This document shows positions 1,453 to 32,528 of a stretch of 36,370 bases of DNA, piece after piece; the first letter of the stretch is position 1, and every line of letters begins with the position of its first letter. The position numbers were made by a program, and so were the translations under genes. This DNA comes from a virus (taxonomy: Duplodnaviria; Heunggongvirae; Uroviricota; Caudoviricetes), in IMG/VR virus record IMGVR_UViG_2617270997_000026. The stretch is one strand, 5' to 3'. The notes under the pieces are model-generated. The model was not told the DNA's origin. It did no database searches and saw only the letters and a list, made by a program, of their open reading frames with translations.

Positions 1453-3300
1453 TCAATCTCCAAAAGCAATCCAGTAAGCAAAAGGATTTACTCCTTGCTC
1501 AGTCACAGATGACATCAGGGAAAATTGCGATGGTGAAACAGGTAACGCTGCAAAACTAACCATTGTTGACACACCTGACCGTGCATTATCGTACGATGCA
1601 ACAACACAATAATTGGTATTGCTGAAAGATATCGGCAGGGGGATATTTACAGGTGAGCCTAATGGCCCTGATGCTGATATTCCCATTTGAATGATGGTTC
1701 CATCAGGCAATTTTCTCCAGCGATTAGAACTCGGATCTCTTTTCCAGGCTGACATATCCGGTATCTGATTTTCTCCTGTACCCACATCCCTTTTCGCCGC
1801 TTCTCCCAAACCAAGGTAATTGAGGACTTCTTTTATACTGCCCATAGCGATAATAGCGCGACCAATAGCTGTAAGGGTTGTCAGTGCTGCGCGGTCTGCT
1901 CCGGTAAAATAAGGCAACCGATCTGCTGCAGTGGCAAGTCCTGCCAGAGCAGTGAGCGTGGCATCTGCCGGTTGTTTTCCGTTTGCCAGATCGTATGCAG
2001 CCTTGACCGCTTTCGGTGTGGCGGCCAGTATTTCAGACGTGCTGTTGATGTCACTGCTCAATTGTACGGTGCCTTTTGCCGTCAGCGAGGCAGCAGGCAC
2101 TCCCGTTATCTGACGCCACGGGTGAGTGTGGCTGACGGGCGCCTTGCCGGCTGCAAGGTCGTATGCAGCCTTGACCGCCTTCGGCGTGGCAGCCTCAGTT
2201 TCTGATTGACTGTCCGTGGCGCTGCTCAGTTGTACGGTGCCTTTTGCCGTCAGTGAAGCCGCAGGCACTCCCGTTATCTGACTCCACGGGTGAGTGTGGC
2301 TGGCAGGCGCCTTGCCGGCTGCAAGGTCGTATGCAGCCTTGACCGCCTTCGGCGTGGCAGCCTCAGTTTCTGATTGACTGTCCGTGGCGCTGCTCAGTTG
2401 TACGGTGCCTTTTGCCGTCAGTGAAGCCGCAGGCACTCCCGTTATCTGACTCCACGGGTGAGTGTGGCTGGCAGGCGCCTTGCCGGCTGCAAGGTCGTAT
2501 GCAGCCTTGACCGCCTTCGGCGTGGCAGCCTCAGTTTCTGATTGACTGTCCGTGGCGCTGCTCAGTTGTACGGTGCCTTTTGCCGTCAGCGAGGCAGCAG
2601 GGACTCCCGTTATCTGACTCCACGGGTGAGTGTGGCTGACGGGCGCCTTGCCGGCTGCAAGGTCGTATGCAGCCTTGACCGCCTTCGGCGTGGCAGCCTC
2701 AGTTTCTGATTGACTGTCCGTGGCGCTGCTCAGTTGTACGGTGCCTTTTGCCGTCAGCGAGGCAGCAGGGACTCCCGTTATCTGACTCCACGGGTGAGTG
2801 TGGCTGACGGGCGCCTTGCCGGCTGCAAGGTCGTATGCAGCCTTGACCGCCTTCGGCGTGGCAGCCTCAGTTTCTGATTGACTGTCCGTGGCGCTGCTCA
2901 GTTGTACGGTGCCTTTTGCCGTCAGCGAGGCAGCAGGCACTCCCGTTATCTGACTCCACGGGTGAGTATGGCTGACGGGGGCCTTGCCGGCAGCCAGGTC
3001 ATATGCAGCCTTGACGGCCTTTGGTGTGGCGGCCAGCGTTTCAGAGGTGCTGTTGGTGGCACTGCTCAGTTGGGTGAACCCCTTAGCTGTCAGTGTCGCG
3101 TCCGGGTGGTTACGGGAACGTACGTGTTCAGCCAGTGACTGTGCGGCTTCCTCCGTTTTTTTCTTCAGCCATTTCGTCCTGTTTGCCAGTTGCCGGGGGG
3201 CTCGATTTGATATCCCGTCTGCACCACCCAGAACCGGATCTGATGTCTCCAGTTGATAGATATTTTCTTCCCACTTTTCTGTTTCATTCAGGTTTCCCAT
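1453..3300 (-). CDS. Tail fibre protein (constant N-terminus, repeat region, variable C-terminus)
   Basis: 615 aa from ATG at 3300 (track start 3306 is TTG); TGA of upstream gene 2 nt before. Seven SETxAATPKAVKAAYDLA-type fibre repeats, then conserved DATLTALAGL...RLPYFTG, then variable tip. Confidence 0.85.
   Translation of the reverse strand: MGNLNETEKWEENIYQLETSDPVLGGADGISNRAPRQLANRTKWLKKKTEEAAQSLAEHVRSRNHPDATLTAKGFTQLSSATNSTSETLAATPKAVKAAYDLAAGKAPVSHTHPWSQITGVPAASLTAKGTVQLSSATDSQSETEAATPKAVKAAYDLAAGKAPVSHTHPWSQITGVPAASLTAKGTVQLSSATDSQSETEAATPKAVKAAYDLAAGKAPVSHTHPWSQITGVPAASLTAKGTVQLSSATDSQSETEAATPKAVKAAYDLAAGKAPASHTHPWSQITGVPAASLTAKGTVQLSSATDSQSETEAATPKAVKAAYDLAAGKAPASHTHPWSQITGVPAASLTAKGTVQLSSATDSQSETEAATPKAVKAAYDLAAGKAPVSHTHPWRQITGVPAASLTAKGTVQLSSDINSTSEILAATPKAVKAAYDLANGKQPADATLTALAGLATAADRLPYFTGADRAALTTLTAIGRAIIAMGSIKEVLNYLGLGEAAKRDVGTGENQIPDMSAWKRDPSSNRWRKLPDGTIIQMGISASGPLGSPVNIPLPISFSNTNYCVVASYDNARSGVSTMVSFAALPVSPSQFSLMSSVTEQGVNPFAYWIAFGD
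1801..1826. other. hix/gix-like 26-bp crossover site for a serine DNA invertase, inside the tail fibre gene
   Basis: TTCTCCCAAACCAAGGTAATTGAGGA resembles hixL (TTCTTGAAAACCAAGGTTTTTGATAA) as I recall it, sharing the AAACCAAGGT core. It sits at the constant/variable junction of the fibre ORF; the partner half-site is at window start. Confidence 0.55.
1920..3095 (-). repeat. Seven tandem 168-bp (56-aa) in-frame repeats within the tail fibre gene; five central copies near-identical
   Basis: The string ttgtacggtgcc recurs at 2062, 2230, 2398, 2566 (spacing 168); further copies by period. Protein unit LTAKGTVQLSSATDSQSETEAATPKAVKAAYDLAAGKAPVSHTHPWSQITGVPAAS. Confidence 0.85.
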
Positions 3301-3302
3301 AA

Positions 3303-3881
3303 TCAACTGCTCCCGTGGTTATAACTGCCATCATGGATGGCGGTATTGTTATAGCGAATGGCCACAGACTGATACTCCAGGCTGGCCAGATGGCAGCGGG
3401 CCGGTGCAAATGCAGCCAGCGTCTGACGCAGCATCGCGGCCTGATCGTTAGTAATGGGCTGTTTCAGAATAACGCGATAAACTGCCCAGGCGGCTGCATC
3501 TCCATGAACAAACAGTCCGTTATAGCTGCGATTGCCGTCGTAACTGAGACGACCTGTGCCTTCAATCAGATCCACTTCACCAAAGCCAAAACGGCGGATA
3601 ACTTCCCGGATTGACCACGGCGTCCCTTTATACCGGTGCAGTTCGATGGCTGCTTTTATAAGCATGCGGCGAACATCGTCCGATTCCGCCAGCTCCCAGC
3701 CATCGCCAGACAGTGAGAACTGCTCGCCCAGCCATGGCAGCGCGGAACTGTCGACGATATCGACGAGAAAGACCATCAGTACGCTCAGGTCGATGTTATC
3801 CAGCCGTCCTGCCAGTCTTCCCAGCGTCCTGAGACTGATATCACCCTCAAGCGGTGGCGGGAGTTGTAATGGCTCAGTCAT
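3303..3881 (-). CDS. Baseplate/tail protein (P2 gpI-like, Mu gp48 position)
   Basis: 192 aa; ATG at 3881 verified; position between baseplate J-like gene and tail fibre; overlaps neighbours. Confidence 0.65.
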   Translation of the reverse strand: MTEPLQLPPPLEGDISLRTLGRLAGRLDNIDLSVLMVFLVDIVDSSALPWLGEQFSLSGDGWELAESDDVRRMLIKAAIELHRYKGTPWSIREVIRRFGFGEVDLIEGTGRLSYDGNRSYNGLFVHGDAAAWAVYRVILKQPITNDQAAMLRQTLAAFAPARCHLASLEYQSVAIRYNNTAIHDGSYNHGSS

Positions 3882-4977
3882 CAGACACTCCAGTCATGTT
3901 AAGAGTGATTGCCGTACAGTTTGCCCATTCGTTTTCTGCCACCACCCGCAGTGCCGGTGTCACCAGTTCAACCTGGTACACCCCGGAAACGGACAATGCA
4001 CTGATAATCTGGCTGGGGACAATATCGCGCCCCAGCGTGGCGGCACGTGATGCCACCCAGTTCTGTATGGCGCTGTTAGCGGCATCTTTTACAGACCTGG
4101 CATCCTGATCACGATAGATCGTAATCTTGGCTTCAATGGTGTAATCCACCTTCACTGGTGTTTTAGCCCGCACTGTATCAGTGAGTGGCCTGACTTTCTC
4201 ATCAGAGCAGAAACTCTCTACCAGCGTGAGAACACCGCCGTCCGGCAGACCGGTACTGAGCAGCGGATACAGATCTACGGTCCCGGGAACCGGGGAAAGC
4301 ACAGCAACATCGACAATGTTGGGATGGGCCTGCATGGCATGAAAGCGGTATGCGCCACGGCTTCCGGCATTGGTGAATGACTCCGGGGCCAGCCTGATAC
4401 GCTCCCGGAGCCTGTCATCGTCTTCCTGTTCTGAACCGCCGGAACTGGCCGTCAGATTGCTCACCAGCAGGTCGACGTTATCAATCTCATCGAGTAACTG
4501 ACTGACCTGCGCAGGTTGCCAGCCGTTACCAGCGGTACCGGGTTCGGTACAGGTGGACGTGACATTGACCAGCAGCAATCCGGCCTTCAGTACCACATCT
4601 GTATCGGTGGCAAAAATAACGCTGTCGGAAGCGCTGACGCGGGTGCCTGCCGGGATCAGCACATCAATGGCCAGTGCCTCATCTACGGAGAACTGGAGCG
4701 TGGTAGTGGCAGGCTGCGCGGCAAGACGGTATACACCGACCAGTTCACCGAGGTAATCAATCATCGGCTCACGGGCAAAGGCGACCAGATTCTGCTTTGC
4801 TGCCTCCTGTACCGCAACCCTGACCAGCATTTCGCGATAGGCCCACAGATCAATCAGCAGACGTTCTGCCTGTGCCGGGTACAGCGTTTTGCCGGTATCC
4901 GCTTCATACTTCGCAATCATTTCTGCCGTGATTTTGTCGGCATCGCGTTCAATAAAATCGGGTTCTGTCAGCGCCAT
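3874..4977 (-). CDS. Baseplate J-like protein (Mu gp47 / P2 gpJ position)
   Basis: 367 aa; ATG at 4977 verified; synteny within baseplate block. Confidence 0.7.
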   Translation of the reverse strand: MALTEPDFIERDADKITAEMIAKYEADTGKTLYPAQAERLLIDLWAYREMLVRVAVQEAAKQNLVAFAREPMIDYLGELVGVYRLAAQPATTTLQFSVDEALAIDVLIPAGTRVSASDSVIFATDTDVVLKAGLLLVNVTSTCTEPGTAGNGWQPAQVSQLLDEIDNVDLLVSNLTASSGGSEQEDDDRLRERIRLAPESFTNAGSRGAYRFHAMQAHPNIVDVAVLSPVPGTVDLYPLLSTGLPDGGVLTLVESFCSDEKVRPLTDTVRAKTPVKVDYTIEAKITIYRDQDARSVKDAANSAIQNWVASRAATLGRDIVPSQIISALSVSGVYQVELVTPALRVVAENEWANCTAITLNMTGVSDD

Positions 4978-5369: not shown

Positions 5370-5966
5370 TCAGTGGGAGTGGTGGCTGGAGTTTTCGCCA
5401 TCAGACAACATACTGCCCGTGGCATGGGCATTCCCTTTAATCTCGATATTGCCATGGATGGTCGCGGTAACACCTTCACCACCAGAACCCGCCATGCCTC
5501 CTTCGTAAATCAGCTTACCCCTGACACGCAGATCTCCGGTAAGTTCGGTTTCCGGTGCGTCAATCGTGGCTTTCTGTGTTTTCAATACCACATCAGCACC
5601 ACACTCAATGACAATATGCTCAATGCCGCCCCGGATGGTCAGAGTGTGCGTCTTCCGGTTGTAGCTGTACTCTGCACCATCAGCAAACCGGGTTCCCCGG
5701 ATATTTTTGTCACTGAACGGTGGTTTATCGACGTCTGAATACACCGCGCCCAGAATAACACCATCCTCGCCGTTGGCATCGAGCAGCACCTCAACCTGCT
5801 CCCCCACGTCAGGGAGCCAGTAATCTTTGTTATCCTGGGTATTGCGCTGCAGCACGTTAAGCCAGTTTGTGCGCAGGTTATCGCATTCAGGCAGACGAAC
5901 GCGGGCCTGAACCCTGTCGGCATCAACGGCACTGACCGTACCGACCTGACGAGTGACACCAGTCAT
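5370..5966 (-). CDS. Baseplate spike/assembly protein (gpV-like, Mu gp45 position)
   Basis: 198 aa; ATG at 5966 verified; Gly-rich C-terminus (GGMAGSGGEG) typical of spike proteins. Confidence 0.7.
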   Translation of the reverse strand: MTGVTRQVGTVSAVDADRVQARVRLPECDNLRTNWLNVLQRNTQDNKDYWLPDVGEQVEVLLDANGEDGVILGAVYSDVDKPPFSDKNIRGTRFADGAEYSYNRKTHTLTIRGGIEHIVIECGADVVLKTQKATIDAPETELTGDLRVRGKLIYEGGMAGSGGEGVTATIHGNIEIKGNAHATGSMLSDGENSSHHSH

Positions 5967-7117
5967 TTTTTCTTCTCCTTAATCACCGTCGATGTACTGC
6001 CATCCGGGTGATAAACCGTGAGTTTCTGAGTTTTTTGTTTTTTCCCTCTTGTGACTGGCCCCCGTGCCACTTCCAGCTCTGTGGTGTAGCCGCTGTTACG
6101 GTCAAACGCATGGCGGGCAGTGGTTATGAGCCATGGCCCGGATAACTGCCCAAAACCCACCAGTTCAATTTTGTTGCCTGCTGTCAGTTGAGGTGTTCCC
6201 GTCAGCGTCAGGGAGCCGTTCTGCTGGTATTCGTTATGTCTGGCCAGTGCTGAATCCGCTTTAATCCGGGCACTGTCCGGGTCGCTGACGCGGCTGTTAA
6301 CTTTAAGTGAGTCAGCGCTGGTAACCTTACCACCTTTGAGCTTTTTGTCGCTTTCACGGGTACCACCATCAGCTTCGTAGACGATCAGTTTTTTACTGCT
6401 GCTTTTCTGGTGTTTTACCTTTGCAGATTTATAGACCCGGTTGATGGTGTCACGCAGGGAAAAGCGGGCCACATCCTGCGGTTTTAACTGCCTGACCGGC
6501 TCCTGACTGCGCAGTGTGGCCAGATGAGAAAAAATCAGCTGGTCACTGACCACTTTCACTGCATAACCATACTCGCTGGCCAGCCGGCGCAGAAAACCCA
6601 CGTCGGTTTCAGCATACTGGGTCACCCGGTCGATTCTGATGGACTCAATGCTGCCCACCAGTTTCAGTCGGTGCTTTCTGGCAATCCGCCCCGCAACAGC
6701 TGCCAGCGTGGTGTTCTCAAAACCACGACTGGTTTTAGTCCGCAGGGCACTGTTAACCGAGGTGGCCACCCCACGGATAGAAACAACGGAAGCGGGCGAA
6801 CTCACTTCGATCTCGTCTATAGAGAACGTACCGCAGGACAGCAGCTTCTCGCCCTGATAGCCCATTTTCAGCGTCAGCGTGTCACCCTTGCCCGGATACC
6901 ATTTATCCAGCCAGCGGCCATCGGTGTCGTCCAGCTCCACCTCAATGGTATCGGACTCATTTTTGATGTTATCGCTCCAGGTCACACGGGTGACATAAGG
7001 CGCGATATCAGAGGTGATGTTTTTCTGCAGATACCACAAAGTGAACACCGGTGTCAGCACATCGCTGACGCCGGTTAACGCTGATGTGACTTGCGCAGTG
7101 CTGTTTATCTCAGCCAT
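5963..7117 (-). CDS. Tail/baseplate hub protein (P2 gpD-like, Mu P/gp44 position)
   Basis: 384 aa; ATG at 7117 verified; synteny between DNA-circulation-like gene and spike. Confidence 0.7.
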   Translation of the reverse strand: MAEINSTAQVTSALTGVSDVLTPVFTLWYLQKNITSDIAPYVTRVTWSDNIKNESDTIEVELDDTDGRWLDKWYPGKGDTLTLKMGYQGEKLLSCGTFSIDEIEVSSPASVVSIRGVATSVNSALRTKTSRGFENTTLAAVAGRIARKHRLKLVGSIESIRIDRVTQYAETDVGFLRRLASEYGYAVKVVSDQLIFSHLATLRSQEPVRQLKPQDVARFSLRDTINRVYKSAKVKHQKSSSKKLIVYEADGGTRESDKKLKGGKVTSADSLKVNSRVSDPDSARIKADSALARHNEYQQNGSLTLTGTPQLTAGNKIELVGFGQLSGPWLITTARHAFDRNSGYTTELEVARGPVTRGKKQKTQKLTVYHPDGSTSTVIKEKKK

Positions 7118-7317
7118 GGGGCAATATCCTCTTCTGTACGGGCTTCTTCAGCCTCAATCACCGGGATCAGTAACAACAGCCCGGAGGGCAGCACCGGCGT
7201 GATGGCCACGTGCGGATTGGCGGCAATAATCCGGGGATAGCCCAGCGGGTCACCGTAGTACTGCCATGCCAGCGAATCCCAGCGCTCTCCGTCACGGGTA
7301 ACATGTTCAAGAAACAT
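7105..7317 (-). CDS. Tail protein X-like small protein
   Basis: About 70 aa from ATG at 7317 (7320 is GTG); motif ERWDSLAWQYYGD...IIAANP resembles P2 gpX-like proteins. Confidence 0.55.
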   Translation of the reverse strand: MFLEHVTRDGERWDSLAWQYYGDPLGYPRIIAANPHVAITPVLPSGLLLLIPVIEAEEARTEEDIAPWLR

Positions 7318-8201
7318 CACACACTCCTCGTCAGTATTCTGGCGGCCATTGCACTTAATCCCGGAGACATGCGGTTGAATGCTGTGCCGGCGGCGTTAAG
7401 CTGCCCGGAAACGGTATCCAGAGCACCTGCAATATTTCTTTTGTCCACACCACTCAGCGCAGACTGTGCCTGCTGTACATACGTGGCTGCTTCGCTGGCT
7501 GTTCTGGCCAGACTGATGGCATCGGGCATGGATTCAGAGAGTGCGTTAAACGCCGGAACACTTTTCCCCAGAGCCCCGGAGATATTACCCAGTCCGCTCA
7601 TCAGCCCCGGCACACGGGTCAGTGCGACAACGGGGTTATCCTTCATTTTCTGTGTCACCCGAACGGCGCTGATAGTGGTCTGGAGTACAGACTGCGCCTG
7701 TTTCGCATAGTTGACGCCGTTGCGGATGAACTGCGCCACCCCTGAAGGTGAAGGTATGGCACCGGAGACCGCCCCGACACCCGGGAGCTTCGTGCGTATT
7801 GCCGGTGGTTGCAGAGGATTTTTCGGGTCACCGGTGTATTCCCGGAGAGACACGGTGGCACTGACAGCCAGCACGTTGCCGGTACTGTCAGTCTGCTCGC
7901 TGGTTGCAGTCACATCGGTAATCACGAACCAGCCGCGATAGTCACCGTTGCCGAAGACCAGCGCCAGTGCCTGATGGGCTTTCATGGCTGTTCGCAGTCT
8001 CGCCAGCTCCACATCGGGTACACAATAATGCTGATGGAAAACCAGAGTTATCTGGATTTCGTCCAGCCTGTCGCCGACGAACTGCAGGCCAGGCTTACCC
8101 CCGATGCGGGCATGCTCCGCATAATCGACGCCGAACGTGGCCTCGAAGCCGTCCCAGTAGGTAATCAGCTCAAACTCAATATCACCCAGTACGGCAAACA
8201 T
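7317..8201 (-). CDS. Tail protein (Mu N / DNA circulation protein-like, gp43 position)
   Basis: 294 aa directly downstream of tape measure; ATGA overlap at 8201. Confidence 0.6.
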   Translation of the reverse strand: MFAVLGDIEFELITYWDGFEATFGVDYAEHARIGGKPGLQFVGDRLDEIQITLVFHQHYCVPDVELARLRTAMKAHQALALVFGNGDYRGWFVITDVTATSEQTDSTGNVLAVSATVSLREYTGDPKNPLQPPAIRTKLPGVGAVSGAIPSPSGVAQFIRNGVNYAKQAQSVLQTTISAVRVTQKMKDNPVVALTRVPGLMSGLGNISGALGKSVPAFNALSESMPDAISLARTASEAATYVQQAQSALSGVDKRNIAGALDTVSGQLNAAGTAFNRMSPGLSAMAARILTRSV

Positions 8202-11200
8202 CAGCGGTACTCCTTACGTTGTTTCTGAGCCAGCAGACGCTCCAGCATTTTTTCCAGCTCATGCAGACTCATATTCAGGGCACCAGTCAGTCCTGCAGGC
8301 GCTGTGGTTTCCCTGCCATTGAGGAAAAACTGAGGATTAAAGCTGACCTGGATACCACCAGACGTTCCACCGCCGGTTGCAGCTGCACCACGGCCTGAAT
8401 ATCCGGCAGCCAGGATTTCAGGCGAGGGGATACGGGGAACATCCGGTGTCATCTCATTTGCCAGACGTTGCCCTGGTAAAATCGATGCCCGGGTGGAGAG
8501 CGGAATAGCGGGCATGGAAGACAAACTATTGATTACGGCTCCGATCGCATTTTTAGCAGACGACATAAACCCATTGATATCGGGCAACGGCATACTGAAG
8601 CGAACACCTGAAGTGTTATCCCGTATTTCTGGCCCCTGGATGCTCACGGGCATTCTGGGGAGCAGTTCACTGGCCATTCGCTGCCCGGCCAGAGCTGCAA
8701 GCGGAGTGGTCCGCTGCAGGCCAATGGCGGCCCCCTGCGCGATATTGTCACCAAAGCCCATAAACACGCGGCTCGGCGAATGAATGCCCAGCTTTTCGCT
8801 GAACCAGCCACTGATGCTGTCACCCATTCCGGTTACACTGGATTTGAGCGACTCCCATTTGTTTTTGATACCGTTAATCAGACCATCGACAAGATGGCCA
8901 CCGAAGTCGGTAAACTTTGCCGGCAGATCAACACCAAGATATTTCAGCGCAGCTGCAAAGGCTTTATAGAGCAGACCTGCCGGCGACCAGTTAATCAGCA
9001 GCTTACCAGTTCCCGCGATACCGCCGTTAAAGGCTTCCTGAATGTCAGCCCAGCACTGTTTAAACCAGCTACTGATGCTGTCACCCATTCCGGTTACACT
9101 GGATTTGAGCGACCCCCATTTGTTTTTGATACCGTTAATCAGACCATCGACAAGATGGCCACCGAAGTCGGTAAACTTTGCCGGCAGATCAACACCAAGA
9201 TATTTCAGCGCAGCTGCAAAGGCTTTATAGAGCAGACCTGCCGGCGACCAGTTAATCAGCAGCTTACCAGTTCCCGCGATACCGCCGTTAAAGGCTTCCT
9301 GAATGTCAGCCCAGCACTGTTTAAACCAGCTACTGATGCTGTCACCCATTCCGGTTACACTGGATTTGAGCGACCCCCATTTGTTTTTGATACCGTTAAT
9401 CAGACCGTCGATAAGATGGCCACCGAAGTCGGTGAACTTTGCCGGCAGAGCAACGCCGAAATATTTCAGCGCAGCCGCAAAGGCTTTATAGAGCAGGCCT
9501 GCCGGCGACCAGTTAATCAGCAACTTACCAGTTCCCACAATGCCGCCGTTAAAGGCTTCCTGAATGTCTGCCCAGCGCTGTTTAAACCAGCCACTGACTG
9601 CCCCCCAGTTGCGGTAGATAAGGTAAGCTGCTGCCGCGACAGCGGTGATAACGAGACCGATGGGATTCATCATCAGCGCACGTCCAATCCAGAGAACAGC
9701 ACGTCCGGCGAGCATAATTCCGCGAACCAGCCCCCCGGAGAGCACGCCACTCAGTGTTCTGGCTCCTCTGGCGACGGCGCTAAATCCGGTCACCAGCCAG
9801 CGGAGCTTACCGCCTTGCCCCAGTGCGAGCGACAGACGAAGCCAGTTGGCCCGAAGTAAAACAGCATTTTTCCAGACACTTACAAAGGGGGAAATAAGGA
9901 GATTCAGCCCCAGTTTGAGACCAACAGTCGCTATCTTAATCGCAAGGAGCGCACTGATGAGCTTAAAAGCCCCACTGACAAATTGCGGGTGAGTCGCTAC
10001 CCAGTGTTTTGCCCCCTGAATGAGTGGAAGCAGTTCCTGAGTCAAAGAAATAAAAGATGGAGCTAATTGATCGCCCAGCGTAATTGCCAGATCGCGACTG
10101 CTGACCATAAGTGTTTTAGTGGCTTCAAGGGGAGATTTCAGCCGCTGATCATAAGCACTGGCAAGCAAATCGTTATCCGCAGCCCTGAGAGCACCGGCAC
10201 GGATCTCTCGATATCTGTCCATGTTGGCCAGCATCGGGCGGATAAATGCCATGACCTGCATATCCGCGAACATATCGCCCAGACCAAAGTTTTTCGCCAG
10301 AGCCTGAAGTGCCTCATCTCTTGCCGTATCATTCTTTATTTTCATGGCTGATTTGAAGCCGGCCAGCGCTTCGGGGCTTTTGGCATTGAGGTAACGTTCT
10401 ATAACACTCAACATCCCTTCAATCGGAGAGATCCCCGCAGCTTTATAACTCGCAATAGATCCCTGCAAATCAATACCCAGATCAGCAAACTGTTTCTGAG
10501 TATCGCGGGCAAAAATTTTGGTAAGAAAGTTTTTAAAATTATTGGCTGCTTCGTCGGTGGAACCTGCACCGATTTTTGCTATCTGGAGACTGGCCCCGAT
10601 TTCAGCAACAGCCTCTTTTCCACTGGCAATACCCGCCATCATTGGGGCCAGGGACTGCATCCACTTGACCTGATCCGGGATTTCAAATGACCCCTGGTCA
10701 CCGGCATAAGCCATAATATTCTGAACGGCACCAAAATCTCTGGCCGCACCTTTCAGGGAGTTTTGCCAGACTGCGGCCACTTTTGCCCAGTCCTGAGCAG
10801 ACGTGCGTGTTGCCGTTGCCGCGCGGGCAATATCCGGCATCAGAAAACCGATATCTGACACATTATCAATATTGTCGCTGATGAGTGAACCCACCGCCTC
10901 CTGCAGCTCATCCTGATACTGATTGTATTTAAGCGCCCAGCCTTTTATCTGTCCGGCAAGTCCATCCCGCGTTTTATTGTCATATTTTGCGGTGATCGAC
11001 ATATCAATCATTTTGTCCTGAAAAGACATGGACTGCTGAACGGCAGGGGAAACCGTATGATAAACAGTCTGTGCCATGCCATACGCTTCAATCCCCTGAC
11101 CATACAGCGCCATGCGGTTAGCTTTCAGCGCATCACTGGTAGCGGATGCCGCTGACAGACGGCGCTGCTGGCGCTCAATTTGCTCCATGGTGCGGCTTAC

Positions 11201-11413
11201 CCGCAGCAGCTCGCTGTTGAGATGCTGCATCCGGGAAGAACCCAGTTGACCATAACGTTCTGTTGCACGGGTTAAAGCGTTCTGACGTTCCTGCAGGCGG
11301 CGTGAGGTATCGCTCAGGGAATCAAGCGCACGGCGGGTACCGCTCATTGCAGAACGGAATGTGCTGCCAATCATCCCGCCGATAACAACGCCGACTGAAA
11401 ACTGTCCCGACAT
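8201..11413 (-). CDS. Tail tape measure protein
   Basis: 1070 aa; ATG at 11413 with GGAGG RBS; alpha-helical Ala/Gln-rich N-terminus, hydrophobic central segments, internal 87-aa tandem repeats; position after tail chaperone. Confidence 0.9.
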   Translation of the reverse strand: MSGQFSVGVVIGGMIGSTFRSAMSGTRRALDSLSDTSRRLQERQNALTRATERYGQLGSSRMQHLNSELLRVSRTMEQIERQQRRLSAASATSDALKANRMALYGQGIEAYGMAQTVYHTVSPAVQQSMSFQDKMIDMSITAKYDNKTRDGLAGQIKGWALKYNQYQDELQEAVGSLISDNIDNVSDIGFLMPDIARAATATRTSAQDWAKVAAVWQNSLKGAARDFGAVQNIMAYAGDQGSFEIPDQVKWMQSLAPMMAGIASGKEAVAEIGASLQIAKIGAGSTDEAANNFKNFLTKIFARDTQKQFADLGIDLQGSIASYKAAGISPIEGMLSVIERYLNAKSPEALAGFKSAMKIKNDTARDEALQALAKNFGLGDMFADMQVMAFIRPMLANMDRYREIRAGALRAADNDLLASAYDQRLKSPLEATKTLMVSSRDLAITLGDQLAPSFISLTQELLPLIQGAKHWVATHPQFVSGAFKLISALLAIKIATVGLKLGLNLLISPFVSVWKNAVLLRANWLRLSLALGQGGKLRWLVTGFSAVARGARTLSGVLSGGLVRGIMLAGRAVLWIGRALMMNPIGLVITAVAAAAYLIYRNWGAVSGWFKQRWADIQEAFNGGIVGTGKLLINWSPAGLLYKAFAAALKYFGVALPAKFTDFGGHLIDGLINGIKNKWGSLKSSVTGMGDSISSWFKQCWADIQEAFNGGIAGTGKLLINWSPAGLLYKAFAAALKYLGVDLPAKFTDFGGHLVDGLINGIKNKWGSLKSSVTGMGDSISSWFKQCWADIQEAFNGGIAGTGKLLINWSPAGLLYKAFAAALKYLGVDLPAKFTDFGGHLVDGLINGIKNKWESLKSSVTGMGDSISGWFSEKLGIHSPSRVFMGFGDNIAQGAAIGLQRTTPLAALAGQRMASELLPRMPVSIQGPEIRDNTSGVRFSMPLPDINGFMSSAKNAIGAVINSLSSMPAIPLSTRASILPGQRLANEMTPDVPRIPSPEILAAGYSGRGAAATGGGTSGGIQVSFNPQFFLNGRETTAPAGLTGALNMSLHELEKMLERLLAQKQRKEYR
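8790..9600 (-). repeat. Three tandem 261-bp (87-aa) in-frame repeats inside the tape measure gene
   Basis: Antisense track ORFs start at 8784, 9042 and 9303 (period 261). Protein unit WFKQCWADIQEAFNGGIAGTGKLLINWSPAGLLYKAFAAALKYLGVDLPAKFTDFGGHLVDGLINGIKNKWGSLKSSVTGMGDSISS occurs three times. Confidence 0.85.
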
Positions 11414-11488: not shown

Positions 11489-11906
11489 CTATGATTTGTC
11501 GCCGTACTCGCTTTTTATTTGCTCTTCAGCCTGCTCCAGCCACATCTCCAGATCGTCAGTATCGAGGGCATCAATCTCCCCCGGCTGAAACCGGAACCAT
11601 CTCGCCAGCAGCCCCTGCGCCTGCGTCAGCGCCCTGGTTGCTCTCACCCATCCCCGTGATGAGCTGAAATCGTTTCTGTAACTGCAGGTAATCAGCCAGA
11701 TCCATATTGTCGAGATCTTCCGGGAGAAGACCAGTACTGCGGGCAATCAGCGGTTCGTCCCAGTCTGCCGGGTTTTTGCTGATTTTGCGCACCTGCTTCA
11801 GGTCTTTTACCGTCAGGCGTTTCAGTTCAACCTGCTCAATTCTGGTGCCTGCAGCAGTGGTGAAGGGATAAGACAATTTAAAAGTATCGGATGGGGTCTG
11901 TGACAT
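11489..11906 (-). CDS. Putative frameshift-extended tail chaperone (E+E'-like); shift near 11574-11585
   Basis: Frame B (11489..11746) is +1 relative to frame A and ends in acidic tail GEIDALDTDDLEMWLEQAEEQIKSEYGDKS. Frame A ends GCC GGG GGA GAT TGA, a G-run compatible with -2 or +1 slippage. Confidence 0.4.
11571..11906 (-). CDS. Tail assembly chaperone (P2 gpE-like), upstream frame
   Basis: 111 aa; ATG at 11906 with AGGAG RBS; between tube-proximal genes and tape measure; overlapped by a second open frame. Confidence 0.6.
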   Translation of the reverse strand: MSQTPSDTFKLSYPFTTAAGTRIEQVELKRLTVKDLKQVRKISKNPADWDEPLIARSTGLLPEDLDNMDLADYLQLQKRFQLITGMGESNQGADAGAGAAGEMVPVSAGGD

Positions 11907-12287: not shown

Positions 12288-12809
12288 TCAGCCCCCGATA
12301 TTGATACGGTAGTCAGTCAGTTGATCAACACCGCCGACCCGGAAGATGTTGGCCAGATAGTCCAGTTGCAGCAGCTCTTCACCATCCAGTACCTGTCTGA
12401 TATACGTGCAGGTGAAGCTACTGGAGAACTCGGCGTTCTCGTGCTGTTTGAACGTCCCCAGCGGGTTCTTCTTGAACATAATCGTCAGGAAGGTGACCAG
12501 CGGGATTTCGTCAATCAGCCCCTGCGAGCTGTAGCGCTGGACGCTGGAACGACACTGCAGTGCCAGCGACCTGTACGGGTTCGCGGCAGACAGCATCGCA
12601 TCGCGGTAAAAGCTGTTCCATTTGATTTCGCCTTCCAGTTTGTCAAAACCAGCCGGGAGTTCCACCTTACCCACCATCCCCAGCGCCTTGTGTTCCTGCA
12701 TAATCATGGAGACATCGGGGAGTTTAACTTCCTCAGCCCGTCCCAGCAGGTTAGTACCATCCAGATAGATGTTGGCATTCGTGATGCGGTTTATCTCAAT
12801 CTTTGACAT
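12288..12809 (-). CDS. Tail tube protein
   Basis: 173 aa immediately after sheath gene (ATGA overlap at 12809); size and position typical of myovirus tube. Confidence 0.8.
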   Translation of the reverse strand: MSKIEINRITNANIYLDGTNLLGRAEEVKLPDVSMIMQEHKALGMVGKVELPAGFDKLEGEIKWNSFYRDAMLSAANPYRSLALQCRSSVQRYSSQGLIDEIPLVTFLTIMFKKNPLGTFKQHENAEFSSSFTCTYIRQVLDGEELLQLDYLANIFRVGGVDQLTDYRINIGG

Positions 12810-14236
12810 CAGTTGCCCCCTTTCAGGGTTAACAGGTATTCCGAGGTGATCTCAGTCTCAAACGTCAGTCGCTCCAGCGGCGGTGGTGGCGTATATTTGT
12901 AGCTCAGCAACAGGTGCCCGGCGGCCAGCTCCGTCTCCGGATTGCGGGCCGGATCAAACCAGCAACGGAAGCCCAGTACCGCACCATCACCAGTCATTTT
13001 GCGACCGTAGGCGTTGACCGACTCCGTCAGTGCATCAATCAGCGCCTGAGTAATCGGCATGTCGATGTACTGCTGGCTGAAATAACGAATGGACTCGTTG
13101 ATCACATCACCGGTGCGGCGAACGTTCTCAAAGTTACGCATATGGGTGACCGTTGGCCATGCTGCCGTCCGGTTACCCCACAGACGAAGGCCGCTGCCGT
13201 AACTGCTGAATACCGTGGTGATCCCCTGTTCGTTAAGCAGGTTTACCTCACTCTGCGGGTCATCAATCATCGCGGACAGCTGGCGCTCCACGCCGGTGAT
13301 CCCCAGAATCTCCTGATTGGAGGATGACCACCAGTAGCCCTTGTCCAGATCGACTCTGGCACGCAGACCTGCTGCACGCTGGCTGAGCGGCTCCAGACGC
13401 TCTGTGTTTGTCACCGGGTCATATACCTTCACATGCGGATAGCACAGACGGACGCGGTCGGAGCTGGTATTGAAGTTGATGGTGCCTTCCGGGCCACGAC
13501 CTGCCAGAGCCTGTGCAAAGGTGGTACCGACAGGCGCATCAATGTAGGTTACCGCGCCCAGCTTCTCTGCCATGGCGATAAGCTCAACTGCGACACTCTT
13601 CTGGGTGCAGAACACCGGCGCAATCAGAATTTTGGCGAAATAGCCGTACAGGTTGAAGCTGTCGTTAAGCAGCTTCATGCCGGTTCGGTTTCCGGCGCTG
13701 TTCCCCCCGCCGATGATGTCCGCCGCAGTCACCTTCGACGGGTCCGCGTACTCATAGCTCACCTTCACGCTGCCACCGGCCTCAATAGCCTTGCCCAGGT
13801 TCGTGAGCACACCCGCCTGCGCATCAACACGGTAGTCCGTGTTCGCCGTGTGGGTGGTGCTGCCTTCACTGTTTTTCACCACCACATTAGCGACAACCGG
13901 ATGCGCCAGTCTGGCCTGCCCTGTCGATTTGTCAAAGGTAACCACCTCATCCTCGATCGCCGTTTTATGTTTCGCCGGGTCGAGGACGTTAATGACCAGA
14001 ACGGTGCCTGCACCATGGTCATAAATCGCATCCAGCGCCTGCGGAATGGTAAAGCCGGTGAACTGGCTGCCAAATGCCGCTGCGTCTTTCTCAGACAGGC
14101 ACTGTACCAGCGTATTGACATCCCCCATCGGGGCGGTACCAATCAGGCCAATAACGGCAGATTTCACCGTTTTAACCGGGCGGGCTCCGTTTTCCACCTC
14201 AATGGTTTCGGGACCATGCAGATAGTTAGCTGCCAT
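12809..14236 (-). CDS. Contractile tail sheath protein
   Basis: 475 aa; ATG at 14236 verified; size and position upstream of tube. Confidence 0.85.
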   Translation of the reverse strand: MAANYLHGPETIEVENGARPVKTVKSAVIGLIGTAPMGDVNTLVQCLSEKDAAAFGSQFTGFTIPQALDAIYDHGAGTVLVINVLDPAKHKTAIEDEVVTFDKSTGQARLAHPVVANVVVKNSEGSTTHTANTDYRVDAQAGVLTNLGKAIEAGGSVKVSYEYADPSKVTAADIIGGGNSAGNRTGMKLLNDSFNLYGYFAKILIAPVFCTQKSVAVELIAMAEKLGAVTYIDAPVGTTFAQALAGRGPEGTINFNTSSDRVRLCYPHVKVYDPVTNTERLEPLSQRAAGLRARVDLDKGYWWSSSNQEILGITGVERQLSAMIDDPQSEVNLLNEQGITTVFSSYGSGLRLWGNRTAAWPTVTHMRNFENVRRTGDVINESIRYFSQQYIDMPITQALIDALTESVNAYGRKMTGDGAVLGFRCWFDPARNPETELAAGHLLLSYKYTPPPPLERLTFETEITSEYLLTLKGGN

Positions 14237-18495: not shown

Positions 18496-19317
18496 TTATC
18501 CTCTCAGTTCCTGTTGTGCCAGTGGCTGAAGCGTACCCTGATAGCGGGCCAGGTCGGGACGGTATGCTGCCCCCGGTGCATAAGACCAGCCGACGTCGGT
18601 GGTCACCTTCGTGGTGCCGGTATTAAAGGTGGCCACGTTCCGCATTTCGCCGGTTTTCTCTGAGACCAGTTTCAGTTCCTGGCCCATGGCAGAGCCGGAG
18701 CTGATAACCTTCAGGCCACGGGCACGGACATCCGCCGCACTCAGGGCAATCACACTACAGCGGCAGCGCCAGCCGTTCGGCGGGTAAAATGCCTGCCAGA
18801 ACGGGTCATCCCAGCGCAGCACCAGACCATGCAGCGCCAGATGGCTCCTGCGGGTATGGCTGTCGTTGATGCCGGTATACATCCAGTACGGCCTGTCGTC
18901 GACGTTTTCCATCTGCTCCGCCCAACGACCGGCGCTGTAGAGTACGGACATATTGGTGCGAAAGATGGTGTCGAGCCGCCACGGGCTGCCCTGCTGAATG
19001 GTGACCGGCTCACCCGTTACCGGGTCAGTCGTGTCACGTGGTCCCCACCATCCCTTACGCTTCAGCACCGGCTTCAGCTCCTGCCGGAACCAGCGATCGG
19101 TTTTTCCTTCATCGACAGCCTGCTGCAGTGCCCCGCGAATATCTTCCAGAATATCCAGGCGGGTCACTTTAGCGACGGTAAAGGCGCGGGCATGGGCTTC
19201 CTGCCACATTTCTTCCCAGTCCCAGGTAATCTGATACCCTTTGGACTTCAGGTAACTGACTGCCCGCTTCGGGGGAAGCGTCATGCAGTACGCCAGTTCA
19301 GCCGTTGTCACGCTCAT
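18496..19317 (-). CDS. Head morphogenesis protein (Mu F-like, gp30 position)
   Basis: Start set to ATG at 19317 (GGGGG upstream), overlapping portal stop; follows portal as in Mu. Confidence 0.7.
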   Translation of the reverse strand: MSVTTAELAYCMTLPPKRAVSYLKSKGYQITWDWEEMWQEAHARAFTVAKVTRLDILEDIRGALQQAVDEGKTDRWFRQELKPVLKRKGWWGPRDTTDPVTGEPVTIQQGSPWRLDTIFRTNMSVLYSAGRWAEQMENVDDRPYWMYTGINDSHTRRSHLALHGLVLRWDDPFWQAFYPPNGWRCRCSVIALSAADVRARGLKVISSGSAMGQELKLVSEKTGEMRNVATFNTGTTKVTTDVGWSYAPGAAYRPDLARYQGTLQPLAQQELRG

Positions 19318-20794
19318 GCAGACGCCCCCAGATATTTGCCACAAAGAGAATGCGGGCCAGCCGTTCCTGCAGATCGTCCGTGTTCATCTGAGGGTAGAGC
19401 TCCGCCAGTTCGCCCAGCAGCTCAGACGGGTTAACCCCGTTTTCGACCCGCTTAAACAGAGGTGCCAGGACGGGTTCCAGCGTGCCATTTAACACACCTC
19501 CGTTCATCAGAATGTCCAGCGCGTCGTCAAGCTGCTGCTGAGCCTGAATATCGGCATCAATCGCCTCGGCAAATGACAGCGGCAGCATGTTATTCTGGCG
19601 TTCCGACGGTGGTGTCTCGTCAATATCGCCGTCCTGCAGCTGGTACTCACGCTTAAAGTATTGCGGGGTCAGACGCAGACCCGCCCGGGTGAGTTTTTCG
19701 TCGCGGGTGGCGCGGGTGTCATCAATGGTCTCCTGTTCCCACATGGCCCAGACCGGACACGGCACATCGCCGAAGTTCAGGGTGACCACCGTTCTGATAA
19801 CCTGATTCACTGCTGCCTGAATGATGTCCGCATCCGCATCGCGGATATCAGCCGTTACCTCCAGCCCGGCCTGTGCAGAGGCCTTGTTACTGTTCGCTTC
19901 CGTGGTCTGATTCTGACCAAGTAATGCAATGGAGATCTCACTGCGTGACAGTGTGATCAGCTCGCGGAATACCTCGCTGCTGTCCGCCTTACCATCCGCG
20001 GCTTTGAGTTCGATGCTGCTGTCATCGGGGATGGCGGCCACCGCGTCCTCCACCATCTGCTCCATGGAGTCCAGCAGTTTTTCAATCTCTGCATCATTTG
20101 CACCCCTCGGGTGCTTACCGATCACCCACGGGGAGCCAAACTTTTCGGCAAAGCGGAGCCAGAATTTCATCCCGCCTTTCTTGAAGGCGACCGGCCAGAA
20201 GCACATGGACAGGTCCGGGAAACCGTAAGGATTGTCATACGAGGCATCCTGTGCCGGCACCACGAATTTTGACGGTGACAGCAGCTCACCCTCCACACCC
20301 GCATCACGCGCCCGGAAGCGCAGGCAGTTGTCCGTATCAAACTGAAACCACTCAGGCGGTTTGCCGACAATATCCGTCACTGCCCACGCCCTGACCGAAC
20401 GGCCCCACATGATTTCACAGGGCTGATACCCGTAGAGCACGGCATCACTCATCTCACCGATGATGCGGGACAGATCCAGATCGTCGAGCATGTCGCGGAT
20501 GAAACGGAAGACCCGGGCAGAAGCGTGACCGCGCTCCAGTCCACGCTCCAGTGATTTGAGCGCTGCTTTACGTCTGCGGATACAGCCCCCGACCAGCGGG
20601 TCGGTGCGCAGTTCGCGGTAGATACGGATATCCCGTCCCTGAGCCTTGAGAATGGGATCAGGATTGGGCAGATACATGCCCAGTCCGTAAAAGTCGATCG
20701 CGCGGCTGCGGGAGGCAATCTGCGCGGTCAGTGATTTCTGAGGCTCAGAAAAAGCAACAAATTCATCGGGTGAAACCCAGATACCCCTCGCCAT
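19298..20794 (-). CDS. Portal protein (Mu gp29-like)
   Basis: 498 aa; ATGA overlap with large terminase stop at 20794. Confidence 0.8.
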   Translation of the reverse strand: MARGIWVSPDEFVAFSEPQKSLTAQIASRSRAIDFYGLGMYLPNPDPILKAQGRDIRIYRELRTDPLVGGCIRRRKAALKSLERGLERGHASARVFRFIRDMLDDLDLSRIIGEMSDAVLYGYQPCEIMWGRSVRAWAVTDIVGKPPEWFQFDTDNCLRFRARDAGVEGELLSPSKFVVPAQDASYDNPYGFPDLSMCFWPVAFKKGGMKFWLRFAEKFGSPWVIGKHPRGANDAEIEKLLDSMEQMVEDAVAAIPDDSSIELKAADGKADSSEVFRELITLSRSEISIALLGQNQTTEANSNKASAQAGLEVTADIRDADADIIQAAVNQVIRTVVTLNFGDVPCPVWAMWEQETIDDTRATRDEKLTRAGLRLTPQYFKREYQLQDGDIDETPPSERQNNMLPLSFAEAIDADIQAQQQLDDALDILMNGGVLNGTLEPVLAPLFKRVENGVNPSELLGELAELYPQMNTDDLQERLARILFVANIWGRLHERDNG

Positions 20795-29581: not shown

Positions 29582-31351
29582 ATGAATGCTGCCCTGACTG
29601 AACGACTGGTTTATGTCGCCCGCGCGGCACGTGACGCGGGGCATGGTAAACGCGGTGCAATATACGACGCTGCCTGTGCTGAACTTGGCATGTCCCGCGC
29701 CACTCTGCTGCGCAGGCTGAAGGAGGTCTCTGTGACTGATAAACGCAAAAAACGCGCTGATGCCGGACGCAGCGCCCTGACCCGCGACGAAGCCGCGCTG
29801 ATATCTGCCACACTGCGTGAGGCCACCCGCAAGAACGGTAAACGCCTCTATTCCATCGCAGATGCAGTGGAAACCCTGCGGGCTAACGGCTTTATCACCG
29901 CAGGCAGAACAGATGAAACCACCGGTGAGTTTTTCCCGTTGTCTGAAGATGCCATCAGCCGTGCTCTGCGTAACTATGGCCTGCACCCGGAACAACTGGA
30001 TGCTCCTGCACCGCATACCGAAGTGGCCAGTCTGCACCCCAATCATGTCTGGCAGATTGACGCCTCACTCTGCACGCTTTACTACCTGAGCAATGGACAT
30101 AAAGGGCTGCAGGTGATGGACAGCGCGAAGTTCTACAAGAACAAGCCCGCTAACCTTGCCCGTATCGCCAGTGACCGCGTGTGGAGTTACGAGATTACCG
30201 ACCATGCCAGCGGCTGGATTTACGTTGAGTATGTGACGGGCGCGGAATCAGGTGAGAACCTGTGTTCTGTGCTTATCAACGCCATGCAGGAGCGTGGCGG
30301 CGCAGACGTGCTGCACGGCGTGCCAAAAATACTCTATCTCGACCCCGGCTCGGCAAACACCGCGGGTATGACGAAAAACATGTGCCGCTCACTGGGCATC
30401 GACCTGATAGCGCACAAGCCGCATAACGCCCGCGCCACCGGACAGGTGGAAAAGGCGCGGGACATTATCGAACGCAAGCTGGAGCCGGGTCTGAAGTTCC
30501 GGCCGGTTCACAGTCTGGAAGAACTCAATGCGCTGGCCGCGAAATGGCGCAGCCACTTTAACGCCACGGCTGTTCACAGCCGCCACGGTAAAACCCGCAC
30601 GGATATCTGGCTGAAGATTACTGCTGAGCAGCTGAAAAAAGCGCCTTCCGTTGAGGTATGTCGTGAACTGGCTGTGGCGGCACCAGAACTCCGCAAAGTC
30701 ACGCCAAAACTTCGTGTCTCGTTCCGGGGCACTGAATTTGACGTATCAACGGTACCGGGCGTACTGGTCGGTGAAAAACTGATGATTACCCGTAACCCGT
30801 GGCGCAGCGATGTGGCACAGGTGGTTCTGACCGGTGAGGACGGCCACGAGACGTTCTTCCTGGTCGAAGAAGTCAGAAAGAACGAGTTTGGCTTTGCTGA
30901 AGGCGCGGCGGTATTTGGCGAAAGTTACAAAGCCCTGCCGGAAACCCCGGCGCAGATGGCGGCAAAAGAAACCGAAGCGCTGGTCACCGGTACAGACAAC
31001 GCCGCAGATGCAGCTGCCGCACGCAAGGCGAAGGCGCTGCCGTTCGGCGGGCGGCTTGACCCATATAAACATATTGATGACGCCACACTTCCGGCCTATA
31101 TGCCGAAGCGAGGTCAGGCCTCTGACGTACGCGGGCCGCGCACTGAACAACGTCCCATGACTCATGTGGAGGCCGCGAAAGCCCTGCGCGATAAGTTCAG
31201 CGCCGACGGCCTTACCTGGACGCCGGAACATTACCGCCAGTTAACGGCACAGTATCCGGACGGCGTACCGGAAGCCGCACTGGATGAAGTCATGGCCACG
31301 CTGACCACGCCGGCCCGCAGCAGCGTTATCAGCATTGTTAACGGCAACTGA
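29582..31351 (+). CDS. Transposase, DDE / retroviral-integrase-fold (Mu A functional equivalent)
   Basis: 589 aa; GGAGG RBS; catalytic triad candidates HVWQIDAS, ILYLDPGSANT, TGQVEKARD with typical rve spacing; followed by AAA+ helper gene. Confidence 0.8.
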   Translation: MNAALTERLVYVARAARDAGHGKRGAIYDAACAELGMSRATLLRRLKEVSVTDKRKKRADAGRSALTRDEAALISATLREATRKNGKRLYSIADAVETLRANGFITAGRTDETTGEFFPLSEDAISRALRNYGLHPEQLDAPAPHTEVASLHPNHVWQIDASLCTLYYLSNGHKGLQVMDSAKFYKNKPANLARIASDRVWSYEITDHASGWIYVEYVTGAESGENLCSVLINAMQERGGADVLHGVPKILYLDPGSANTAGMTKNMCRSLGIDLIAHKPHNARATGQVEKARDIIERKLEPGLKFRPVHSLEELNALAAKWRSHFNATAVHSRHGKTRTDIWLKITAEQLKKAPSVEVCRELAVAAPELRKVTPKLRVSFRGTEFDVSTVPGVLVGEKLMITRNPWRSDVAQVVLTGEDGHETFFLVEEVRKNEFGFAEGAAVFGESYKALPETPAQMAAKETEALVTGTDNAADAAAARKAKALPFGGRLDPYKHIDDATLPAYMPKRGQASDVRGPRTEQRPMTHVEAAKALRDKFSADGLTWTPEHYRQLTAQYPDGVPEAALDEVMATLTTPARSSVISIVNGN

Positions 31352-31361
31352 GGAGGGATAC

Positions 31362-32528
31362 ATGCTGGTACTGAAGCAGCAACTGAAAGAGGCCCGTATT
31401 CCACAGGCGGTGGTGGCGAGAGCTGTCGATGTTTCTGAGGCCACGCTGGCCCAGATTGTGAATCATAACGCGTGGCCCCGCACCAGCCCCGGAGAAGTGC
31501 GCCGGCGTCTTGCGTCCTGGCTGGAAAGTCAGGGGATTGATACAACGAAGAGTTTTGATGCTGTACAGGGCGCGGCCACGCCCCGTACAGCGGGTACCAC
31601 AGATAAAACGAGCCTCAGTGAGGAAGAGAATATGTTACTCAAAAAACAGGTGTTATTTCCAGCAACCAAAAAAGCGTTTGGTCTTTTCCGTGACCCGTTC
31701 GCCGACGAAGCCATGCAGGGTTCTGATGATGTGTTCACCACTCCGGACATTCGCTACGTGCGTGAGGCGCTGTACCAGACAGCCCGTCATGGTGGGTTTA
31801 TGGCCGTCATCGGTGAGTCCGGTGCGGGTAAATCCACGCTGCGCCGTGACCTGACTGAACGTATCAACCGCGAGAATGCGCCGGTGATTGTTATCGAGCC
31901 ATACATCATCGCTATGGAAGACAACGATGTGAAAGGGAAAACCCTGAAGGCAGCAGCGATTGCCGAAGCCATTATCAGTACCATCGCACCACTGGAAAGC
32001 ATCAGACGCAGTCAGGACGCCCGCTTTCGCCAGCTGCATCGCGTCCTGAAAGACAGCAGCCAGGCGGGGTTCAGCCACGTTCTGGTGATTGAGGAGGCCC
32101 ACAGTCTGCCCATTCCGACACTGAAACACCTCAAACGCTTTTTTGAGCTGGAGTCCGGTTTCAAAAAACTGCTGTCCATCGTACTGATTGGCCAGCCGGA
32201 ACTGGCGACAAAACTGTCTGAACGCAATATGGAAGTCCGTGAAGTCGTTCAGCGCTGTGAGGTGGTCGAACTTCTGCCTCTGGACAATAACCTTGAAGAG
32301 TTTCTGACGTTCAAACTGCAACGGGCCGGTAAACAACTGACGGACATTATGGACGCCAGCGCAGTGGATGCCATACGTGCCCGCCTGAGCAATCCGGGAA
32401 GTCATCGTAAAAATATGGTCAGCCTGCTGTATCCGCTGGCCGTCAGTAACCTGGTAATAGCCGCCATGAATCTGGCCGCTGAAATCGGGGTTCCACAGGT
32501 CAACGCTGACGTTGTCAAAGGGGTTTAA
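31362..32528 (+). CDS. Transposition helper ATPase (MuB-like AAA+ protein)
   Basis: 388 aa from ATG 31362 after GAGGAGGG; N-terminal HTH-like segment, Walker A GESGAGKST, Walker B VLVIEEAH; directly downstream of transposase. Confidence 0.75.
   Translation: MLVLKQQLKEARIPQAVVARAVDVSEATLAQIVNHNAWPRTSPGEVRRRLASWLESQGIDTTKSFDAVQGAATPRTAGTTDKTSLSEEENMLLKKQVLFPATKKAFGLFRDPFADEAMQGSDDVFTTPDIRYVREALYQTARHGGFMAVIGESGAGKSTLRRDLTERINRENAPVIVIEPYIIAMEDNDVKGKTLKAAAIAEAIISTIAPLESIRRSQDARFRQLHRVLKDSSQAGFSHVLVIEEAHSLPIPTLKHLKRFFELESGFKKLLSIVLIGQPELATKLSERNMEVREVVQRCEVVELLPLDNNLEEFLTFKLQRAGKQLTDIMDASAVDAIRARLSNPGSHRKNMVSLLYPLAVSNLVIAAMNLAAEIGVPQVNADVVKGV

Follow-up and report, generated by a model that had tools for sequence, protein, structure and literature searches.

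Deletions and duplications in gpH of phage lambda (Katsura and Hendrix 1984, in the account given in PMC3271669) established that the length of the tape measure protein of the tail (TMP) sets the length of the tail, and for siphoviruses and myoviruses alike a link between TMP size and tail length has been drawn (PMC13585406). In lactococcal phage TP901-1, deletions in the repeat and hydrophobic regions of the TMP each shortened the tail proportionally, and a 118-nm tail corresponds to approximately 810 length-determining residues, or ~0.146 nm per residue; taking repeats out makes the tail proportionally shorter, and repeats are proposed by the authors to ease duplication and deletion (PMC5099701). 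Internal unit duplication and loss in TMP genes is already known (PMC3271669, PMC5099701, PMC13585406). Here we describe an unusually well-resolved case, a tandem array of three units in the TMP gene carried by IMG/VR virus record IMGVR_UViG_2617270997_000026, a stretch of 36,370 nucleotides (nt) that we refer to as the window and that belongs to a BcepMu/Mu-like transposable prophage of Escherichia coli with a P2-type contractile tail. The array is probably a length-variable segment of the TMP, formed by an older duplication followed by one recent exchange or slip, amid recurrent change in copy number, and its variation would be passed on to the tail through the protein's action as a ruler.

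We ran Tandem Repeats Finder and a separate repeat search on the window and numbered the units in protein order. Tandem Repeats Finder reports the array at 8802-9597, with a period of 261, 3.0 copies, 96% matches, 0% indels and a score of 1466, and the repeat search places the copies at 8802-9062, 9063-9323 (99% to the first) and 9324-9584 (93%). The units stand head-to-tail, the whole amounting to 3 x 261 + 13 nt. The period equals 3 x 87, which keeps the reading frame, and each unit encodes 87 amino acids (aa), at aa 610-696, 697-783 and 784-870 of the 1070-aa protein. A 13-nt direct repeat, TCAGTGGCTGGTT, which encodes S-G-W-F, borders the array at 9585-9597 and 8802-8814, and the two internal unit junctions read TCAGTAGCTGGTT. 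So long and exact a repeat cannot have arisen by chance. The features on which the argument turns, in window coordinates, are as follows.

8201..11413, minus strand: TMP gene, 1070 aa (open reading frame (ORF); Pfam PhageMin_Tail PF10145; relatives annotated 'phage tail tape measure protein')
9585..9597, minus strand: upstream copy of the 13-nt direct repeat TCAGTGGCTGGTT, which also flanks the single unit in one-unit alleles and is imperfect in the outgroup L009
9325..9585, minus strand: unit 1, type A (~aa 610-696), differing by 2 nt from the first unit of allele L005, which has two units
9064..9324, minus strand: unit 2 (~aa 697-783), by its diagnostic sites a chimera of type B at unit positions 1-179 and type A at 211-261
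9115..9145, minus strand: 31-nt tract identical across the three units, the probable exchange or slippage point behind unit 2
8803..9063, minus strand: unit 3, type B (~aa 784-870), identical to the last unit of allele L005
8802..8814, minus strand: downstream copy of the 13-nt direct repeat TCAGTGGCTGGTT

An earlier reading of this DNA (the original prediction), made from its letters and ORFs, had described an in-frame 261-bp repetition of three 87-aa units at 8790-9600, in the C-terminal half of the 1070-aa protein. Both repeat searches and the reading frame agree with that description, and its location is right to within about 10 nt. It had also called the three units near-identical, which holds for units 2 and 3, which differ by 2 nt, but not for unit 1, which differs from units 2 and 3 by 15 and 17 nt, respectively.

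To resolve these differences by site, the units of the window and of 16 relatives from RefSeq complete-genome-level assemblies were aligned and their variable sites tabulated. There are two unit types, A, which is always first, and B, which is always last, and in the window they are 17/261 nt apart (~6.5%). Up to position 179, all 15 sites diagnostic of A versus B are in the B state in unit 2; at 211 and 255 the state is A, and the unit carries no private change. Its neighbours have close counterparts in strain MEI3O-23, the bearer of the two-unit allele L005. The divergence of A from B and the chimeric middle unit run counter to the earlier claim that the array arose by one recent triplication.

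We propose instead a model of three steps. A single 87-aa unit with flanking 13-nt microhomology would have been duplicated once, after which the copies A and B diverged by ~6.5% at the DNA level; the 13-nt repeat is a plausible microhomology for this first duplication. Misaligned pairing of A with B would then repeatedly add or remove a unit, whether through replication slippage or through unequal exchange of the RecA type. In one recent event of this kind on a two-unit A-B allele, B would have paired with the A of another copy and the strand switched within the 31-nt tract at 9115-9145, leaving A, then a unit that is B on its left and A on its right, then B, which is the arrangement of the window's allele.

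This model makes two predictions, namely that middle units should run from B to A with varied breakpoints and that one-unit alleles should run from A to B, and both hold among the relatives. In the three-unit allele L002 (AR_0015 and many others) the middle unit breaks between positions 55 and 63, and in the three-unit alleles L003, L004, L013, L014 and L015 it is all A, which puts the breakpoint before position 9. In one-unit alleles the reciprocal arrangement is seen, A on the left and B on the right, with the switch between 89 and 110 in L007 and between 9 and 44 in L008. Because middle units break at varied points and single units are reciprocal chimeras, copy number changes recurrently. 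The outgroup one-unit genes L009 and L010 have a mixture of A and B states, so one unit is ancestral and A and B diverged after the first duplication. At the protein level, 66 full-length close homologues show many distinct mosaic signatures. Outside the array the nearest neighbours of the window's TMP have two units, at a distance of 1 aa, or one unit, at 3 aa; they are not the other three-unit alleles.

The relatives also bear on the view that the array reflects a single recent triplication, or three old copies kept alike by gene-conversion homogenisation (concerted evolution). The 2/261 nt that separate units 2 and 3 would suit either, and conversion does happen in the array, in that the middle unit of alleles L011 and L012 looks converted by unit 3. 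Unit 1, however, lies 15-17 nt from both other units, and the two differences of unit 2 from unit 3 match unit 1 and both fall at the 3' end, a block pattern that argues against homogenisation. Against this view stand also the ancestral state of one unit and the existence of two-unit A-B alleles with identical or near-identical units, which are the commonest form. We regard both forms of this view as very improbable.

The frequency of each form was estimated with window 8500-9900 as the query, from 60 records taken at even ranking steps among E. coli complete genomes. The TMP gene is present in 634-636 of 5426 such genomes, depending on the query used. Three units were found in 13 of the 60 sampled records (matched span 1401 bp; ~22%), two in 40 (1140 bp; ~67%), and one in 6 (879 bp or about 715 bp; 10%), with a partial match in the remaining record. 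Annotated TMP gene lengths agree with these spans (3213, 2952 and 2691 nt, and 2466 nt in a more distant lineage), and the one-, two- and three-unit alleles encode TMPs of 896, 983 and 1070 aa. Three-unit genes occur in dozens of complete genomes from unrelated strains and independent laboratories, including ABU 83972, and strain SCU-101, which was assembled twice, has three units each time. All one-, two- and three-unit genes examined have an open frame except that of ABU 83972, where a frameshift lies elsewhere in the gene. No four-unit (1157-aa) allele was seen in the best 120 close homologues or in the 60-genome sample, a search that was not exhaustive. The original prediction had proposed long reads as a check on copy number, a single copy counting against it; many complete genomes confirm three-unit alleles at long-read grade, which excludes that outcome for such alleles in general, the exact contig of the window apart.

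Some genes of this group depart from the series in other ways. In the same region of the protein, the close homologue P0001 (1084 aa) carries a duplication of 101 aa that takes in the last hydrophobic segment together with the beginning of the unit, and P0085 (995 aa) has a 12-aa duplication at a unit junction; these may be real or assembly errors. In ABU 83972 (L004; NC_017631.1, 1702-4916) the three-unit TMP gene is 3215 nt long, with a 2-nt insertion and frameshift near the N-terminus, and its annotation gives a TMP cut short and a hypothetical protein, which reflects either real inactivation or an error of an old assembly.

The unit extends well beyond this prophage. When one 87-aa unit was searched against 1.84 billion representative proteins (clusters at 50% identity), 640 clusters gave a match at E <= 1e-3 and 337 gave one at E <= 1e-10. 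The best 150 matches include 95 full-length representatives (700 aa or longer), in which the units were recounted. One unit is present in 60 of these proteins, two in 27, three in 6 and four in 2, with repeat periods of 42, 76, 87 and 113 aa and median TMP lengths, for one to four units, of 868, 929, 1056 and 1236 aa. These duplications are independent, and the module, which lies just upstream of the conserved G-I-H-S-P-S motif, is thus a place where TMPs recurrently and independently undergo internal duplication.

What the units would do to the tail follows from the ruler principle. With a rise of 0.146-0.15 nm per residue, an 87-aa unit is calculated to span ~13 nm, and the rise per ring in such tails is ~4 nm by our own estimate. 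Should the TMP serve as a ruler within the tail tube, every mostly helical unit would add ~13 nm, or about three hexamer rings of tube and sheath, and the TMP would be expected to set the number of tube and sheath products per virion. Three tail lengths would then be expected from the alleles of 896, 983 and 1070 aa. We thus infer, by analogy and in line with the original prediction, that each unit would lengthen the tail. An AlphaFold model of TMP aa 596-890, computed from a single sequence with no alignment, is ~79% helix at a predicted local distance difference test score (pLDDT) of only 39; in this model each unit has 71-72 of 87 residues in helix, arranged as helix, loop, helix, loop and long helix, the two loops being short. 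Its helix content weakly supports a predicted mostly helical unit.

The same arrangement, with several Gly-rich loops, would also suit units that are real and variable and yet do not count as ruler length, for example because they fold back as helical hairpins or because they serve as a membrane or channel module after ejection, so that copy number alters something else or nothing. The position of the array directly after strongly hydrophobic TMP segments would suit such a role. In TP901-1, however, deletions in the repeat and the hydrophobic regions alike did shorten the tail proportionally (PMC5099701). Median TMP length rises with unit number across the family, which speaks of added protein length, not of tail length, and the genes examined keep their frame open at one, two and three units, ABU 83972 excepted. 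We consider a role of this kind improbable, and retain the ruler as the expected action of the array. A further reading is that the 87-aa unit and the 13-nt microhomology form a selected length-switch cassette with frequent, reversible gain and loss of units. This is unlikely; were it true, a prophage population would hold a standing mix of short-, medium- and long-tailed virions, and the system would be akin to variation at a contingency locus, adjusted to how thick the host envelope or capsule is; the module would have been duplicated independently in hundreds of TMP lineages.

Several points weigh against the history and the ruler role proposed here. The middle unit of alleles L011 and L012 is B throughout except at position 9, which a single unequal exchange cannot give, and in L006, the two-unit allele of ST131, the first unit runs as a mosaic of A, B and again A. 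A single exchange as the source of every allele is ruled out by these three alleles, and gene conversion or two successive events are therefore also needed. Unequal exchange and replication slippage leave the same product and cannot be told apart by sequence. On a tree of 795 non-repeat TMP residues from 66 alleles, parsimony requires at least 18 copy-number changes, a number that is indicative, as part of the count comes from proteins of short-read assemblies in which copy number may be collapsed; we take the firm part of the evidence for recurrence to be the DNA of complete genomes. Beyond its helix content, the low-confidence structural model is unusable, and our literature search found no electron microscopy or tail-length measurement for these alleles or this phage group. 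Finally, a single draft contig, that of the window (JOND01000217.1, GCA_000711595.1), is the only record of the exact 1070-aa protein, and the exact array of the window is absent from E. coli complete genomes, where the best match is 98.8%.

This last point raises the possibility that the window's third unit is an assembly artefact, the strain truly being two-unit A-B and the assembler having looped through the repeat once extra. Such an error would leave a middle unit with no private mutation, joined in a tract common to A and B as a false join at k <= 31 would be, within flanks 1 aa from two-unit alleles, all of which is the case here, and the array does defeat assemblies. In the record of Escherichia phage PhiKM a 100-N gap falls exactly in the array, which leaves the TMP divided between two coding sequences (CDS), one of them labelled 'coding region disrupted by sequencing gap'; the risk of assembly collapse raised in the original prediction is thus real. 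Assemblers, however, normally collapse or break at repeats of this kind and do not expand them, and the shared tract, at only 31 nt, is shorter than the k-mers used in the final stage of most assemblers. The three-unit alleles of dozens of complete genomes, from independent laboratories and twice from SCU-101, also argue for a natural third unit, and natural three-unit alleles have analogous chimeric middle units. An artefact is accordingly a poor explanation of the window's array, and we hold to a natural third unit, with the reservation that TMP unit copy number from short-read data is not to be trusted.

The repeat has consequences for annotation as well. The NCBI pipeline marks three-unit TMP genes as 'incomplete' pseudogenes, giving two fragments for L002 (1702-4914) and one truncated fragment for L013 (2149-4914). 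The 3213-nt ORF of L002 was checked and is uninterrupted, and these calls look like an annotation artefact of the repeat. On the opposite strand the repetition produces one long frame.

8780..9859, plus strand: antisense ORF, 359 aa, lengthened by the repetition; spurious

We rejected this ORF as a real gene on its codon pattern, on stops in relatives and on the lack of any stand-alone Pfam stretch, in agreement with the earlier view of such frames as products of the repeat. Codon changes between A and B are 9 synonymous and 7 non-synonymous in the TMP frame, and 4 and 12 in the antisense frame, which is broken by stops in L005, L007 and L009. Its Pfam matches are the sum of three weak repeats, and 0 stretches pass alone.

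The identity of the gene itself rests on its domain and its neighbourhood. The PF10145 PhageMin_Tail match covers TMP aa 159-340 (E 2e-20, 73.9 bits against a cutoff of 33.2), and close homologues carry the name 'phage tail tape measure protein, TP901 family'. At 1070 aa, no other ORF found in the window is as long as that of the TMP, and stretches at ~aa 470-610 are plainly hydrophobic. The neighbouring tail genes are listed below.

12809-14236, minus strand: tail sheath gene (Pfam Phage_sheath_1/1C)
12288-12809, minus strand: tail tube gene (Pfam Phage_tube)
11571..11906, minus strand: tail assembly chaperone (gpE-like), immediately upstream of the TMP gene (Pfam Phage_TAC_7, E 3.5e-22)
7317..8201, minus strand: gpU-like tail protein, immediately downstream of the TMP gene (Pfam Phage_P2_GpU, E 7e-39)
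5963-7117: gpD-type gene, downstream of the TMP gene (Pfam GpD)

The order is thus sheath, tube, TAC_7 chaperone, TMP and then the gpU/gpX/gpD baseplate hub genes, as is the case for TMP genes, and the order in PhiKM is identical. Together the PF10145 match and the position between a gpE-type chaperone and gpU/X/D uphold the original assignment of a tape measure gene. Mu-like genes are present elsewhere in the window, with an rve transposase at 29582-31351, an adjacent AAA_22 ATPase at 31335-32528 and a Portal_Mu gene at 19298-20794 (E 3e-90). The closest phage record is PhiKM (PQ738613, Bcepmuvirus), with 98.7% identity over 84% of the window's first 25 kb; a literature search found no paper on it. 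From the Mu-like prophage, the tail gene neighbourhood and the kinship with PhiKM it follows that 8201..11413 is the TMP gene of a contractile-tailed Mu-like prophage.

Related prophages adjoin different host genes, namely aroA (L021, L024), otsB (L020) and argG (L022), as is expected of a transposable phage inserting at many sites. Upstream of the TMP gene, an 85-aa ORF at 11489-11746 on the minus strand overlaps the gpE-like chaperone gene along its 3' part, in a frame other than that of the gene, and an overlapping 'GpE family' CDS is present in L009 and L010. By analogy, this overlap is where a candidate programmed frameshift giving an E/E' pair would be expected.

The window holds a second tandem array, at 1984-3072 (168 bp x 6.5 copies, 94% matches), within the ORF at 1453-3306 on the minus strand, a 617-aa tail fibre gene with seven Pfam Phage_fiber_2 matches and a gp53-like C-terminus. 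Its copies number 2.5-2.6 in L019, L021, L022, L023, L024 and PhiKM and 4.5 in L020, and across E. coli genomes the spans are separated by multiples of 168 bp. A coupling between fibre length and the number of TMP units was considered and rejected, as three TMP units occur with 6.5 or 2.6 fibre copies, two with 2.5-2.6 and one with 2.5 or 4.5. In strain 736 (L023) the fibre gene has a further array at 3059-3882 (300 bp x 2.7 copies, 98% matches), which the window lacks. Beside the fibre gene, L019-L024 carry oppositely oriented tail-fibre-assembly and gp53-like C-terminal genes and a 'recombinase family protein', a layout that, by comparison, resembles the invertible G segment of Mu. The start of the window appears to lie inside such a G-like segment (ORFs 4-465 and 465-1058 on the plus strand and 1030-1449 on the minus strand), with the recombinase beyond its left end.

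E. coli collections thus hold near-identical prophages with TMPs of 896, 983 and 1070 aa that are 1-3 aa apart outside the array; FCI23 and AVS0947 carry one unit, MEI3O-23 two, and SCU-105, strain 736 and AR_0015 three. This natural allelic series offers a test of the ruler rule, and of the nm of tail per residue, in a contractile-tailed Mu-like phage without engineering. The mapped reciprocal chimeras show the pace and route by which TMP length changes, and the wider search marks the module as a duplication hotspot across the TMP family. PhiKM has the same TMP gene at the identity given above, and differs in that its TMP is interrupted by the 100-N gap and its tail fibre array has 2.5 copies against 6.5 in the window. 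Lambda gpH belongs to a siphovirus and was studied in laboratory constructs, and the ruler principle is carried from it to the E. coli prophage by analogy.

The repeats of the TP901-1 TMP (Mahony et al. 2016, PMC5099701) are alike in forming a tandem helical segment in the C-terminal part of a TMP with hydrophobic segments. TP901-1, however, is a siphovirus with degenerate 11- or 18-aa repeats marked by aromatic residues, and its variation was engineered, whereas the E. coli prophage has 87-aa units with 93-99% DNA identity, in a contractile-tailed transposable phage, with natural variation and mapped exchange points. By inspection, aromatic residues lie at positions 1, 5, 12, 26, 33, 36, 42, 51, 54, 70 and 87 of the unit, an irregular spacing, and Trp or Phe does not recur every 11 or 18 residues in the 87-aa sequence. 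In mycobacteriophages TMP length likewise evolves as internal units are duplicated and lost (Belcaid et al. 2011, PMC3271669). The events described there are old, lie between diverged phages and were reconstructed algorithmically, whereas in the E. coli prophage near-isogenic alleles differ by whole units within one bacterial species and include the reciprocal chimeras.

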